A stretch of 64,000 bases of DNA, from positions 13,389 through 77,388 of the forward strand of contig JBEKVO010000005.1 in the NCBI GenBank assembly GCA_049513895.1, in the 5' to 3' direction. The stretch comes from Rectinemataceae bacterium (GTDB lineage: Bacteria > Spirochaetota > Spirochaetia > Treponematales > Rectinemataceae). The notes under the pieces were generated by a model. The model made no database searches and was not told the DNA's origin. It saw nothing but the letters and a program-made list of their open reading frames with translations. Positions 10,210 to 34,867 of the stretch are shown here, in pieces. The translations under genes and the position numbers were made by a program. Every line of letters starts with the position of its first letter. The first letter of the stretch is position 1.

Positions 10210-12069
10210 CTAGTATCGCACCAGGCACTTGGGCCCGCTGCCGATGAGATCTCGCCTGCCCGCCAGGATAAGCGCCTCATGGACGAGCTCGCGGTTCTCG
10301 GGTTTATTGAACTGAAGGAGGGCGCGCTGCATCGCCCTCTCGCGCTCGCCGCGGGCGACGTGAACGGCATCGCCCGTGGTCGGGTCCATCCCGGTCCAGT
10401 ACATCGCGGTCGCGAGGGTTCCCGGCGTGGGATAGAAGTCCTGCGCCTGGTCGGGCACGAAACCCGCGTCGCGCAGGTACAGGGCGAGCTCGACGGCCTC
10501 GCGGAGGCCAGCGCCGGGATGGGCCGAGATGAAGTAGGGCACGAGGTACTGCTTGAGTCCGACCTCGCGATTGAGTTCCGCATAACGCTTGGAGAAAACC
10601 GCATAGGCCGCGTTGCCGGGTTTGCCCATCAGGCGCAGAACCGTCTCGGATACGTGCTCGGGCGCCACCTTGAGCTGGCCCGAGATGTGATGCTCTACGA
10701 GCTCGCGGAAAAAAGTCTCGTCGCGGTCGAGCGTGAGGTAGTCGAAGCGTATGCCCGAGCGTATGAATACCTTCTTCACGCCGGGGAGCCTGCGAATCGC
10801 ACGCAGTATGCCCAGGTACTCGCCATGGTCCACCTGGAGATTGGGACAGGGCTCGGGGGAGAGGCAGAGCCTGTCGGGGCAGGACCCCGACTCGTCGGTC
10901 TTGCGGCAGGCCGAGGCGCGAAAATCGGCGGTGGGTCCGCCGAGGTCGTGGATGTATCCCTTGAAGTCCGGCATGCCCGCGAGGATCGCGGCCTCGCGCA
11001 GAAGGGACTCGCGGCTTCTCGAGGAGATGGCCTTGCCCTGGTGCAGGGTGATCGAGCAGAAGGAGCAGCCCCCGAAGCAACCCCGACTCGAGACCAGGGA
11101 AAACTTGACCTCGGAGAAGGCGGGAACGCCGCCGAAGGCATCGTACATGGAATGCCAGGCGCGTTCGTAGGGCAGCTCGTGAACGCGGTCGAGCTCAGGC
11201 CGCGAGAGCGGAAGAGAGGGCGGCTCCTGAATCACGAAACGCGTATCGCTGCGCTCGACGAGGGCTTTCGCGTAATGCGGGTCCGCGTTGGCGTAGCGCA
11301 CGCGGGTGGCCTCGAGGAAGGCCGCCTTGTCGGAGGAGCTCTCCTCGTAGGAAGGCAACAGGATAAAGGAACCCGGCTCGAGCTCGGGCGGCTTGGATGC
11401 GTGCCAGGCCGTACCCGCTATCCCGCGCAGATCGGCGACGGCGCCCGAAAGCGCGGCCGCGGCGAGACGCCCAAGTATTTCGGATACCGCCTGCTCGCCC
11501 ATCCCGTGGACCAGGATGTCCGCCTTCGAGTCGAGGAGGATGGAGCGGCGCACCTTGTCGGACCAATAGTCGTAGTGGGCTAAAGAGCGAAGCGAGGCCT
11601 CGACGCCGCCGACCACGACGCGTACTCCCTTATAGGCCTCTCTGGCCTTGGCCGCGTAGGCGATGACCGCCCGATCCGGCCTCGCTTGGGTCCTCCCCGC
11701 GACTCCCTTCCCGATCGTGCCGTCGCCGCGCAGGCAAAGTTCGGCTCTCCCTCCCGGCGCGTAGTCGTCCTCGGATCGGGGTTTGCGGTTGGCCGTGTAC
11801 GAGGAGACCATCGAATCGAGGGCCCCCGCAGTGACGAGGAAGGCGAGCCGCGGTCTTCCGAGGAGGCGGAAGGCCGAGACGTCGTCGGGGTCGGGGCGGG
11901 CGATGACGCCGACGCGATAGCCCTCGGCCTCGAGGAGGCGTCCGAGCAGGGCGACGCCGAAGGATGCGTGGTCCACGTAGGCGTCGCCCGTGACGAAGAT
12001 CGCGTCGAGGCCGCCGGGATTGAGGCCCCACGCGGCGAAGTCGGGGGCCAGGGCCGGGAGGAAGGGCAT
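10210..12069 (-). CDS. ygiQ: YgiQ family (UPF0313) radical SAM protein
   Basis: MPFLPALAPDFAAWGLNPGGLDAIFVTGDAYVDHASFG N-terminus and CFGGCSFCS radical-SAM cluster motif. Confidence 0.85.
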   Translation of the reverse strand: MPFLPALAPDFAAWGLNPGGLDAIFVTGDAYVDHASFGVALLGRLLEAEGYRVGVIARPDPDDVSAFRLLGRPRLAFLVTAGALDSMVSSYTANRKPRSEDDYAPGGRAELCLRGDGTIGKGVAGRTQARPDRAVIAYAAKAREAYKGVRVVVGGVEASLRSLAHYDYWSDKVRRSILLDSKADILVHGMGEQAVSEILGRLAAAALSGAVADLRGIAGTAWHASKPPELEPGSFILLPSYEESSSDKAAFLEATRVRYANADPHYAKALVERSDTRFVIQEPPSLPLSRPELDRVHELPYERAWHSMYDAFGGVPAFSEVKFSLVSSRGCFGGCSFCSITLHQGKAISSRSRESLLREAAILAGMPDFKGYIHDLGGPTADFRASACRKTDESGSCPDRLCLSPEPCPNLQVDHGEYLGILRAIRRLPGVKKVFIRSGIRFDYLTLDRDETFFRELVEHHISGQLKVAPEHVSETVLRLMGKPGNAAYAVFSKRYAELNREVGLKQYLVPYFISAHPGAGLREAVELALYLRDAGFVPDQAQDFYPTPGTLATAMYWTGMDPTTGDAVHVARGERERAMQRALLQFNKPENRELVHEALILAGRRDLIGSGPKCLVRY

Positions 12070-12212
12070 GCGGCGATTATACCAAGGTCTGCGATAGTAA
12101 GGCGACATGCTCCGCATGTCGCAAACTTAAGGAAGGCTTGGTGAGAGGCCTTCATTGCGACGCTCCCTTTGGTCGTGTCGCCTTATTAATGAAGGCCGCT
12201 ATAGGTCTCGCG

Positions 12213-13877
12213 TCATCCCTTGGCGAGGCTCCTGTTGACCGCGGAGAGAACTGCGCGCACGCCGGCCGCCGCGATGCTCGGGTCGGTGCCGACGCCCCAG
12301 GACTTGCCCTCGCCGGGTCCGCGCGCCAGCACATAGGCGACGGCGAGCGCGTCGGAGCCCGAGGAGAGGGCGTCCTCGTGGAAGGACAGGACGCTCACTC
12401 CCGCGATGCCGAGGGTGGAGAGGCTGTGCACGAAGGCGTCGATGGGGCCCTTGCCCTTGCCGACTATCTCGCGCTCCTCGCCGCGGAAGCGGACGCGGGA
12501 CCGCCAGGTCGTCTCGCCGTTGGCGTGGTCGGGTATCTCGTTGAAGGACAGGAGGGCGAGCGGAGCGGTCACGTTGAGGAACTCGGTCTCGTAGAGCGCG
12601 CGAATTTCGTCGATCGAGAGCTCGGTGCCTCGCCTGTCGGCGATGCGATTGATGAACATCCCCACTTCCGGGTGCATCGCCTTGGGCAGGTCGTAGCCGG
12701 CGTTCTCCTTGAGGATATAGGCGACGCCGCCCTTGCCCGACTGGCTGTTGATGCGGATGATCGCCTCGTAGTTCCTGCCCAGGTCCTTCGGGTCGATGGG
12801 GAGGTACGGCACTTCCCAGGGCGCCTCGGGGTCGACGAGTTTGGCTCGCATTTCGATGCCTTTTTTAATCGCGTCCTGGTGCGAGCCCGAGAAGGCCGTG
12901 TACACGAGCTCTCCCGCGTAGGGGTGTCGCTGGGCCACTTCCATCCCGGTAAAGCCCGAGTAGGCCGAGACTATGCGCGGCAGGTCGTAGAGATCGAGAC
13001 CGGGATCTATCCCCTGGCTGTACAAGTTGAGCGCCATCGTGACTATGTCGAGGTTGCCCGTTCGCTCCCCGTTGCCGAACAGCGTGCCCTCCACCCGGTC
13101 GGCCCCGGCGAGCAGAGCCAGCTCGCTGGCCGCGACTCCCGTGCCGCGGTCATTGTGCGTGTGAAGGCTCACGATCGCCGAGTCGCGGCGCGACAGGTGC
13201 GTGATGAACCACTCGATCATGTCCGCGTAGAGATTGGGCGTCGAGGATTCCACGGTGGCGGGGAGATTGAGGATGATGGGCTTATTCGGCGTGGGCCCCC
13301 ACTCGTCCATCACCGCCTCGCATACCTCGAGGGCATACTCGACCTCGGTGTTGGAGAAGCTCTCGGGCGAGTACTCGAGGATCAGGTCGGTGCCCGGCAC
13401 ACGCCCGAGGCCAGCCTTGACGAGCCGCGTACCCTCGATCGCGATGGCCTTGATCTCGTCCTTCGACATTCCGAAAGTCACCTTGCGCTGCACCGGCGAC
13501 GTCGAGTTGTAGATGTGGAAAATCGCCTTCTTCGCCCCGGCGAGACTCTCGAAAGTGCGCTCGACCAGATGCTCCCTGCATTGGCAGAGCACTTGAATCG
13601 CGACCCCTTCGGGAATCCTCCCATGCTCGATCAGCTCGCGCGCGAAGTCGAACTCTATCTGGCTCGCCGAGGGGAAGCCGATTTCGATCTCTTTAAAGCC
13701 GATGTCGAGGAGGAGGTCGAAGTACTCGAGTTTCTCGTCCACGCCCATGGGCTCGACGAGGGCCTGGTTGCCGTCGCGAAGGTCCACCGAGCACCAGCGC
13801 GGGGCCTTCTCGATGCTCCGGCCGGGCCAGGCCCGATCGACGGAAGGCGGTTTTGGGAAGGAGCTGTACTTGGCCAT
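12213..13877 (-). CDS. leuA: 2-isopropylmalate synthase (long, actinobacterial-type form)
   Basis: RWCSVDLRDGNQALVEPMG, HTHNDRGTGVA motifs; CAGGAGGACAAG RBS before ATG 13877. Confidence 0.9.
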   Translation of the reverse strand: MAKYSSFPKPPSVDRAWPGRSIEKAPRWCSVDLRDGNQALVEPMGVDEKLEYFDLLLDIGFKEIEIGFPSASQIEFDFARELIEHGRIPEGVAIQVLCQCREHLVERTFESLAGAKKAIFHIYNSTSPVQRKVTFGMSKDEIKAIAIEGTRLVKAGLGRVPGTDLILEYSPESFSNTEVEYALEVCEAVMDEWGPTPNKPIILNLPATVESSTPNLYADMIEWFITHLSRRDSAIVSLHTHNDRGTGVAASELALLAGADRVEGTLFGNGERTGNLDIVTMALNLYSQGIDPGLDLYDLPRIVSAYSGFTGMEVAQRHPYAGELVYTAFSGSHQDAIKKGIEMRAKLVDPEAPWEVPYLPIDPKDLGRNYEAIIRINSQSGKGGVAYILKENAGYDLPKAMHPEVGMFINRIADRRGTELSIDEIRALYETEFLNVTAPLALLSFNEIPDHANGETTWRSRVRFRGEEREIVGKGKGPIDAFVHSLSTLGIAGVSVLSFHEDALSSGSDALAVAYVLARGPGEGKSWGVGTDPSIAAAGVRAVLSAVNRSLAKG

Positions 13878-13914
13878 CTTGTCCTCCTGTATCCATGAGC
13901 TCCGGCGGCGAGCC

Positions 13915-13950
13915 AAAAAAAGGCCCGCGTGCCGTGAGCGGCAGCGGGCC
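13915..13950 (-). terminator. Rho-independent terminator of the leuA leader (attenuator)
   Basis: On minus strand GGCCCGCTGCCG-CTCA-CGGCA(C)GCGGGCC followed by TTTTTTT, 37 nt upstream of leuA ATG. Confidence 0.7.
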
Positions 13951-13971
13951 TAATCGAGGGGTAAAATCCCC

Positions 13972-14109
13972 CTATCCGGCTTGTATCGCCGAACCCGCGC
14001 CGCTCATGCTCCTAAGGAGGAGCCCGCTAAGGAGGAGGCCGTTGAGTAGGAGGCCGCTCGAGCCGAGGGGGAGGAGTTCGCGCGATTCGAAAGTCGGAGT
14101 GTTCTTCAT
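13972..14109 (-). CDS. Leucine-rich leader peptide (45 aa) of leuA
   Basis: Hand translation: MKNTPTFESRELLPLGSSGLLLNGLLLSGLLLRSMSGAGSAIQAG; 13 Leu including three LLL runs; ends 22 nt before the terminator stem. Confidence 0.6.
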   Translation of the reverse strand: MKNTPTFESRELLPLGSSGLLLNGLLLSGLLLRSMSGAGSAIQAG

Positions 14110-14196
14110 TCGGTGTTCCTACGGGCAGAGGCTATAGGAGCTTTCCCTCTTGGTCAAGCCCCCGGAGGCCGGTATTGGGTTATACTCGAAGCCGAT

Positions 14197-34247: not shown

Positions 34248-34332
34248 GGAGCGGTGTCCGAGGGGTTTAAGGAGGCGGTCTTGAAAACCGCTGTGCCGCA
34301 AGGCACCGAGGGTTCGAATCCCTCCTGCTCCG
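34248..34332 (+). tRNA. tRNA-Ser (anticodon UGA)
   Basis: Manual cloverleaf: acceptor GGAGCGG/CTGCTCC, anticodon arm GCGGT-CTTGAAA-ACCGC, long variable arm GTGCC..GGCAC, T-arm GAGGG-TTCGAAT-CCCTC. Confidence 0.9.
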
Positions 34333-34352
34333 CGACCGTATTTGTCTTAATT

Positions 34353-34440
<88 letters not shown>

Positions 34441-34444
34441 TCCC

Positions 34445-34518
34445 GAGGTTATAGCTCAGATGGATAGAGCATCAGATTGCGGATCTGAAGGTCGGTGGTT
34501 CGAATCCACTTAGCCTCA
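34445..34518 (+). tRNA. tRNA-Arg (anticodon GCG)
   Basis: Acceptor GAGGTTA/TAGCCTC, D-arm GCTC-AGATGGATA-GAGC, anticodon arm TCAGA-TTGCGGA-TCTGA, T-arm GGTGG-TTCGAAT-CCACT. Confidence 0.85.
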
Positions 34519-34527
34519 TCGCCCATT

Positions 34528-34614
34528 GGAGAGATGCGAGAGCGGTTGAATCGGGCGGTCTCGAAAACCGTTGAACCCGTAAGGGTTCCGGGGGTTCGAA
34601 TCCCCCTCTCTCCG
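34528..34614 (+). tRNA. tRNA-Ser (anticodon CGA)
   Basis: Acceptor GGAGAGA/TCTCTCC, anticodon arm GCGGT-CTCGAAA-ACCGT, long variable arm, T-arm GGGGG-TTCGAAT-CCCCC. Confidence 0.9.
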
Positions 34615-34642
34615 CTTAACTTCAAGTAAAAATCGCACACTT

Positions 34643-34729
34643 GGAGAGATGGCCGAGCGGTCGAAGGCGCACGATTGGAAGTCGTGTTTACTCGTAAGGG
34701 TAACTAGGGTTCAAATCCCTATCTCTCCG
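34643..34729 (+). tRNA. tRNA-Ser (anticodon GGA)
   Basis: Acceptor GGAGAGA/TCTCTCC, anticodon arm CACGA-TTGGAAG-TCGTG, long variable arm, T-arm TAGGG-TTCAAAT-CCCTA. Confidence 0.9.
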
Positions 34730-34744
34730 GATCGGCTTCCCGCT

Positions 34745-34867
34745 CTTCGAGCGCCCGAAGCCAGGCACTGCGCTCGTGGCCGCCGCCTAAACCCGCCAGG
34801 TCCGGAAGGAAGCAACGGTAAGCGGTAGGCGCGGTGATGCAGAGCGCCTGGCTTCGAGCGCTCGAAG
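34745..34867 (+). ncRNA. ffs: Signal recognition particle RNA, small (4.5S-type)
   Basis: Conserved domain IV motif CCAGGTCCGGAAGGAAGCA at 34796-34814 at the tip of a ~120-nt hairpin (CTTCGAGCGCCCGAAGCCAGGC... pairs with ...GCCTGGCTTCGAGCGCTCGAAG); sits upstream of dnaX as in Bacillus. Confidence 0.85.

Follow-up and report, generated by a model that had tools for sequence, protein, structure and literature searches.

The region upstream of leuA in this Rectinemataceae genome raises the question of whether a short leucine-rich open reading frame, followed by a GC-rich hairpin and a run of U residues, could work as a leader-peptide attenuator of leucine biosynthesis. The sequence analysed (the window) is a stretch of 64,000 nucleotides, and all the features of the locus are on its minus strand unless stated otherwise. 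The analysis supports that all the sequence-level components of a classical leader-peptide attenuator are present and that they are conserved in 20 sequences in front of leuA. Ribosome stalling and a response to leucine are what this arrangement predicts.

The gene concerned, leuA (12213..13877), encodes a type-2 2-isopropylmalate synthase of 554 aa (TIGR00970, 719 bits versus a cutoff of 697). Its ATG is at 13877 and is preceded by the Shine-Dalgarno sequence AGGAGGA (13882..13888), which is complementary, as seen in the sequence and in the folding, to the UCCUCCU of the second and third Leu runs of the short ORF. No other leucine-pathway gene is adjacent to leuA, which stands apart from any leuBCD. 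The gene directly downstream, after a gap of 95 nt, belongs to the YgiQ family of radical SAM proteins (10210-12117, profile match), and hence the attenuator probably controls leuA alone. On the other side of the leader, an ORF of the plus strand opens at ~14197 and is apparently divergent from it, so the hairpin at 13922-13950 is not the terminator of that gene. No tRNA-Leu gene was found in the window, where the tRNA genes present are those for Ser and Arg and are irrelevant to the leader. They form a tight cluster at 34248-34856 of the plus strand, where four tRNA-Ser genes (tga, gct, cga, gga) stand with a single tRNA-Arg gene (gcg), and the small SRP RNA comes next.

The leader ORF (leuL-like, 13972..14109) starts with ATG, has 45 codons followed by UAG and translates to MKNTPTFESRELLPLGSSGLLLNGLLLSGLLLRSMSGAGSAIQAG*. 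This agrees with the initial annotation of the locus, which described a minus-strand leader of 45 aa with three LLL runs; the 13 Leu residues counted there must be corrected to 12 out of 45. Nine of the 12 Leu codons are inside three G-LLL-x units, with the Leu runs at 14044-14052, 14029-14037 and 14014-14022. In the repeat and codon analysis they appear as a tandem repeat with a period of 15 nt and 3.1 copies (14012..14058). Among the 386 small ATG ORFs of the window, the leader is alone in having at least two LLL runs or at least 28% Leu, and it holds the sole 3xLLL stretch found in any frame. Regarding codon usage, the leader uses CUC, the major Leu codon.

Relatives were collected by a LeuA scan with one genome per species, and then by a metagenome scan with a pattern based on run 2. 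The neighbours of the window in the LeuA scan are uncultured high-GC Spirochaetota/Treponemataceae MAGs with 79-90% LeuA identity, and the same leader is present in all the close relatives that have upstream sequence. The family thus obtained has 20 distinct sequences (the window and 19 others, from MAGs and metagenome contigs), with leuA after each of them (MAKYSPFP.../MPKYSPFP...). Half of the sequences (10/20) came from the pattern, which fixes run 2, and the other 10 were found via LeuA, independently of any DNA pattern. Conservation of the Leu run upstream of leuA in relatives had been proposed as a check, and the leader ORF is in frame in 20/20 sequences; the lack of conservation that would count against an attenuator was not found. 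The start codon is ATG in 19 sequences and GTG in one. Seven different lengths, from 42 to 75 nt and all divisible by 3, separate the start codon from run 2, and in every sequence the stop is at a constant 66 nt from where the run-2 block begins. As a consensus, the peptide reads M(K/N)xxPSxxSRE...G-LLL-x-G-LLL-S-G-LLL-(R/G)S-x-SG-x-GSA-xx-AG*. Apart from its Leu codons the peptide changes freely, with frequent non-synonymous changes. In the second and third Leu codons of run 3, positions 1 and 2 are invariably C and U and the wobble position takes all four bases, even though these nucleotides are in a hairpin loop; this is a codon-level (coding) signature and not an RNA-level one. Runs 1 and 3 vary synonymously. 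Run 2, GGC CUC CUC CUU (CCUCCUCCUU), does not vary even at its wobble positions among the 10 sequences that came from the LeuA scan (down to 79% LeuA identity), and yet its CUU is little used (11% usage, with 2 of the 50 Leu codons in leuA).

The G-LLL-x-G-LLL-S-G-LLL-RS motif is conserved at the peptide level, as would be expected if the ORF encoded a functional small hydrophobic protein, with the hairpin as its own partly leaky terminator and without any sensing. This explanation is scarcely credible, since the remaining peptide is poorly conserved and the ORF is always directly upstream of leuA, even where the upstream synteny has changed (in L005-L009 the synteny differs and the leader is still with leuA). 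Moreover, a conserved alternative pairing overlaps the terminator, and non-homologous Leu-run mini-ORFs are found at the same position in other phyla.

The leader RNA would start from a putative sigma-70-type promoter read from the sequence (14131..14157), with the -35 box TTGACC at 14152-14157, a spacer of 15 nt and the -10 box TATAGC at 14131-14136. Most relatives retain TTGAC at -35 and a TA-rich box at -10. The promoter scanner is limited to spacers of 16-18 nt and for this reason passed over the one of 15 nt. A weak Shine-Dalgarno sequence, AGGAA, lies 6 nt 5' of the leader ATG (14116..14120), and 17 of the 20 family sequences have an AGG(A/U)(A/U) box ~6-10 nt upstream of the leader start. 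Two relatives, L005 (2190-2268) and L006 (2182-2260), have no AGG box, and a -10-like box is only ~10 nt away from the start of their leader ORF. In these two, the mRNA may be leaderless or almost leaderless.

The leader ORF is followed by an intrinsic terminator (13915..13950), identified by RNAfold and by comparison of the family, which consists of a GC stem of 12 bp, interrupted by a single bulged C (13922-13950), and U7 (13915-13921). Its sequence at 13922-13950 is GGCCCGCUGCCG/CUCA/CGGCA(C)GCGGGCC. A simple terminator scanner missed this hairpin, probably owing to the bulge, and RNAfold finds it. The end of the U-tract is 37 nt from the leuA start, in accordance with the initial coordinates. 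In one subclade (L003, L070 and L124) there are 87 nt from the U-tract to the leuA ATG, with ~50 extra nt between the terminator and the leuA Shine-Dalgarno that contain an internal inverted repeat, GUCGCAAAG...CCUUGCGAU.

The 5' arm and loop of the terminator, GGCCCGCUGCCGCUCA (13935..13950), are also the 3' strand of the antiterminator, as indicated by folds and pair counts. The 5' strand of the antiterminator is UGAGCGGCGCGGGUU (13992..14006), located in leader codons 35-40 and recognised by folds, pair counts and shuffles. The pairing between 13992-14006 and the terminator 5' arm and loop had already been proposed, and it holds with 15 pairs, a duplex energy of -29.0 kcal/mol, matched by 0 of 500 dinucleotide shuffles of the leader, and conservation in the family. 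Across the family, the antiterminator is a helix of 12-16 bp which closes a three-way junction whose other arms are two hairpins seen in the folds. The first one, P-a (13977..13991, CGGC-GAUACAA-GCCG), is in the last leader codons; 98.8% of its alignment cells are paired and the stem scarcely varies. The second one, P-b (13957..13973, AGGGG-GAUUUUA-CCCCU), overlaps the stop codon and appears in 20/20 per-sequence folds with differing inner base pairs, two pairs being changed on both sides in the unrefined MAFFT alignment.

Folding for mutually exclusive structures had been suggested as another check. In the full untranslated leader the terminator is intact in the folds of 20/20 sequences, and in RNAs cut at the terminator loop, so that the 3' arm is missing, the antiterminator three-way junction forms in 20/20. 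Across the family, the junction has energies from -38 to -47 kcal/mol, and the isolated terminator hairpin has energies from -20 to -29 kcal/mol. In pair counts, also taken on the unrefined MAFFT alignment, 89% of cells are paired in the antiterminator helix versus at most 49% when the partner was slid by 1-3 columns. This helix shows three compensatory pairs, including U-A to C-G in L005, L006 and L100, and a G-C pair becomes A-U in L009 with a G-U intermediate in L118. The terminator likewise has 89% of cells paired and three pairs changed on both sides. These changes are to be read against a limited sequence variation in the helices (effective sequence number of 1.5).

Other pairings of the leader are less defined. 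Two candidate protectors of the antiterminator strand appeared, one in per-sequence folds, where the strand pairs with the 5' coding region (scattered Leu codons), and the other in RNAalifold, where it pairs with run 2. Neither of them shows covariation, and before the 3' arm exists the antiterminator at equilibrium beats both. Furthermore, run 3 and the Arg-Ser codons form a hairpin (14008..14023, GCUCCU-CCUU-AGGAGC) that is paired in 20/20 sequences, with UA changed to UG at one pair in three of them. The minor Arg codon AGG of this hairpin (14% usage) is kept in 17/20. The hairpin is a candidate RNA-polymerase pause hairpin or could be part of a protector. Finally, downstream of the U-tract there is a box, CUCGCCGCCGGAGCUC (13897..13912), recognised by family comparison and RNAalifold, which looks as if the terminator 5' arm had been duplicated. 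This post-terminator box is semi-conserved (CCGC[G/C]GCCGG; CCCGCGGCCGGAGC in relatives) in 17/20 sequences and absent from L096, L139 and L153.

Such a degree of structure could also suggest a structured cis-regulatory RNA, riboswitch-like or protein-binding (the latter has been proposed for the LEU element of actinobacteria), that senses leucine or a regulator directly, the ORF being incidental. The nucleotide conservation is very high (81% mean column identity from run 2 to the terminator), the three-way junction is conserved, and dependence on translation has been doubted before for the leuA of Streptomyces. Nevertheless, this possibility is very unlikely. The ORF is open with start, stop and frame in 20/20 sequences and all the indels are multiples of 3, and the loop of the run-3 hairpin varies with codon periodicity. 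Conservation is concentrated in helices and codons, with junction linkers and hairpin loops of variable sequence and length, which argues against a ligand pocket and fits an attenuator. In addition, no Rfam family, T-box included, matched at E up to 10. T-box, riboswitch and small-protein readings were rejected on the absence of an Rfam match, the conservation of the frame, the linkage to leuA and the alternative pairing.

The attenuator reading also requires that the position of the ribosome decides which structure is formed. In the model used, the ribosome masks the nucleotides from -15 to +12 relative to the A-site codon. As long as the 3' arm has not been transcribed, the probability of the antiterminator is ~0.9 with the A site at codons 1-31, declines over codons 32-33 and is ~0 for codons 34-41, with a range of collapse of 33-43; the antiterminator returns once the A site is at the last codons and the stop. 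The model is thus consistent with the first proposal that a ribosome stalled at the Leu codons would leave the antiterminator free. This would hold for a stall at practically every Leu codon, and a ribosome that has gone past run 3 would block the antiterminator. On the other hand, it does not agree with the second part of that proposal, in which a ribosome at the stop (13972) masks the antiterminator strand, because the footprint covers this strand at A-site codons 33-43 only. A ribosome at the stop would plausibly lie between the two strands of the helix and melt P-a and P-b, and in this way the closure of the junction could be prevented.

Once the terminator is complete, the picture given by the same model is different. 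With one ribosome in the leader of the window, the probability of termination is at least 0.7, and mostly at least 0.9, at any position, and the same equilibrium test in the family favours the terminator at nearly all positions in most sequences. A purely thermodynamic switch was rejected on this ground. Since the terminator is favoured at equilibrium wherever the ribosome sits, the decision would have to be kinetic. The decision is likewise kinetic in the trp paradigm of E. coli. Masks representing a ribosome queue, with trailing ribosomes every 10 codons, lowered the probability of the terminator only in the window and L001-L006. An effect of such a queue on termination is an unproven suggestion of the model.

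With these elements, the following mechanism can be proposed. The promoter ~45 nt upstream would start the leader RNA, and a ribosome would translate the 45-codon ORF. When Leu-tRNA is scarce, the ribosome would stall with its A site at or before codon 31-32 and leave 13992-14006 free. This segment would pair with 13935-13950 once it is transcribed, giving the 15-bp helix and the three-way junction with P-a and P-b. The terminator 3' arm would then be without a partner and RNA polymerase would read through into leuA. When Leu-tRNA is plentiful, the ribosome would move onto codons 33-45, where it would cover the antiterminator strand or sit in the junction at the stop. The GC hairpin and U7 would then form and transcription would end at ~13915. 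It seems, therefore, that a classical ribosome-mediated transcription attenuator coupling leuA transcription to the supply of charged tRNA-Leu is a likely reading of this locus, and one that we hold with good confidence from the sequence data.

A further question is whether the Leu runs have a second function after read-through. The invariance of run 2 including its wobble positions in the 10 sequences found via LeuA, despite the minor codon CUU and the synonymous variation of runs 1 and 3, could be explained by a control at two levels. Run 2 (and run 3) would act in the read-through mRNA as an anti-Shine-Dalgarno on AGGAGGA, in addition to the attenuator, and translation of leuA would be restricted to the time in which ribosomes are present or stalled at the Leu codons. 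Such a control would combine the attenuator with the actinobacterial LEU element, whose base stem is formed by the run of Leu codons and the Shine-Dalgarno of leuA (PMC1262725). In the RNAalifold consensus of 13 read-through RNAs, CUCCU of run 2 pairs with AGGAG of the Shine-Dalgarno, the antiterminator is kept, and the terminator 3' arm pairs with the post-terminator box. In the window itself, the minimum free energy fold and the ensemble give the leuA Shine-Dalgarno as 95% paired to runs 2 and 3.

However, any CUC-rich stretch complements any GGAG Shine-Dalgarno, and this pairing is therefore expected by composition. Run 2 and the Shine-Dalgarno are both invariant, so no covariation can be read from them, and about half of the family ensembles pair the Shine-Dalgarno with other CU-rich stretches or leave it open. 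Other causes of an invariant run 2 could be its pairing with the antiterminator strand or with an upstream CUAAG, or a need for a single isoacceptor, tRNA-Leu(GAG). Control at two levels is thus possible, though on balance unlikely.

A more tentative and rather doubtful extension of the model is a sensor with two outputs. The sequence CCUCCUUA of the leader Leu runs is the same as the anti-Shine-Dalgarno end of the 16S rRNA. Runs 2 and 3 (six Leu codons) might time termination and also, as an exact mimic of this end (CCUCCUUA), sequester the leuA ribosome-binding site, and the post-terminator box might lock the terminator 3' arm. If this were true, neither transcription nor translation of leuA could proceed without a ribosome, or a queue of them on a leader of such unusual length, stalled at the Leu codons, and a mechanistic link would appear between classical attenuators and the unexplained LEU element of actinobacteria. 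In any case, the invariant anti-Shine-Dalgarno-like Leu run offers a testable route to the interplay between Leu runs and the leuA ribosome-binding site, a point that is open for the LEU element.

The enterobacterial leuL (RF00512, Leu_leader) follows the same logic as the spirochaete leader, with a short ORF carrying tandem Leu codons and a terminator/antiterminator pair in front of leuA. Nevertheless, there is no homology of sequence or structure with it (cmscan, E up to 10). The covariance models of Rfam 15, RF00512 included, gave no match to the leader region at the gathering threshold, and the matches at E up to 10 were only sub-threshold and unrelated sRNA, miRNA and cis-regulatory models, largely over the terminator hairpin. 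In E. coli, leuL has 28 codons and one run of four Leu, with rare CUA codons. The spirochaete leader, in contrast, has 45 codons and three LLL runs in a 15-nt tandem repeat with the major codon CUC, and its stop codon lies within an antiterminator folded as a three-way junction. The target is different too, being a monocistronic type-2 leuA instead of leuABCD.

Leucine leaders are on record in Proteobacteria and in Streptococcus (PMC5314783). The leuA leaders of Streptococcus were described by PASIFIC/Term-seq as uORFs with Leu runs and a terminator/antiterminator, unrelated to the leuL of E. coli (PMC5314783). They share the design with the spirochaete leader and are also non-proteobacterial, but they belong to another phylum, have another sequence and are backed by Term-seq, whereas the spirochaete leader is known here from sequence alone. 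In actinobacteria, the LEU element upstream of type-2 leuA has a uORF with a Leu run and a pseudoknot and has no terminator, and Seliverstov et al. (2005, PMC1262725), who described it, regarded classical attenuation as unlikely in this case. The same work reports that mutations in the leader codons of Streptomyces leuA did not behave as classical attenuation predicts (PMC1262725). Hence, a uORF with a Leu run is not by itself a proof of mechanism. The spirochaete leader resembles the LEU element in having a uORF with a Leu run before leuA and Leu codons complementary to the leuA Shine-Dalgarno, and differs from it in its conserved core, which is a strong terminator and an antiterminator.

In the set of 80 LeuA loci, short mini-ORFs with Leu runs also precede leuA in the cultured Treponema sp. 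C6A8 and Treponema sp. JC4, many Treponemataceae MAGs, Desulforhopalus, Methylacidiphilales and others. The loci include L034, L043, L033, L027 and L029 (Treponema), L035, L056 and L068 (Desulforhopalus), and L064, L013, L018 and L025. These mini-ORFs have 16-28 codons and one run of 3-6 Leu, are often AT-rich with CUA, and lie upstream of orthologous type-2 leuA. For them too, neither Rfam nor the literature searched gave an earlier account. A strong hairpin and a U-run follow the mini-ORF in most of the 14 loci folded, and are less clear in three Methylacidiphilales loci. Although the design is alike, the leaders of Treponema, Desulforhopalus and Methylacidiphilales are shorter, have a single run and are undetected by R1, the covariance model of the window family, which gave only weak terminator-like matches in 70 more distant leuA loci. 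As delimited by this search, the RNA family does not extend beyond the high-GC spirochaete clade, and Leu-run leaders before type-2 leuA apparently recur independently in Treponema, Desulforhopalus, Verrucomicrobia and others.

The Methylacidiphilales/Verrucomicrobiae loci L052 (~2240-2500), L063 and L021 have the leaders MQITALSLRLTLLLPGRTGSAEAI and share with the spirochaete family a GCCGCCGGGAC box and the 13-mer ACGGGUUCGGCGG, which is read in both groups as T-G-S-A. As leaders, they have only ACGGGUUCGGCGG and the peptide TGSAEA in common with the family. This likeness could reflect distant homology or the co-transfer of the leader with leuA.

The initial annotation had presented this locus as the enterobacterial leu logic in a lineage where it is rarely annotated. 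The logic stands, and no earlier description of leuA attenuation in spirochaetes or Treponema was found in Rfam or in the literature searched; the Leu-run leaders upstream of leuA are in themselves widespread in Spirochaetota and elsewhere. The basic mechanism is not new, and the novelty is a putative leucine attenuator at the level of a family, in a phylum for which no earlier description was found. Its unusual features would be the length, the triplicated G-LLL unit, the three-way-junction antiterminator that contains the stop codon, and the invariant anti-Shine-Dalgarno-like run. Compared with the systems on record, the leader would extend textbook amino-acid attenuation to Spirochaetota, and it provides a family of 20 sequences for annotation or for an Rfam-type model. 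It could be useful for the annotation of MAGs and for predicting amino-acid prototrophy and its regulation in uncultured bacteria.
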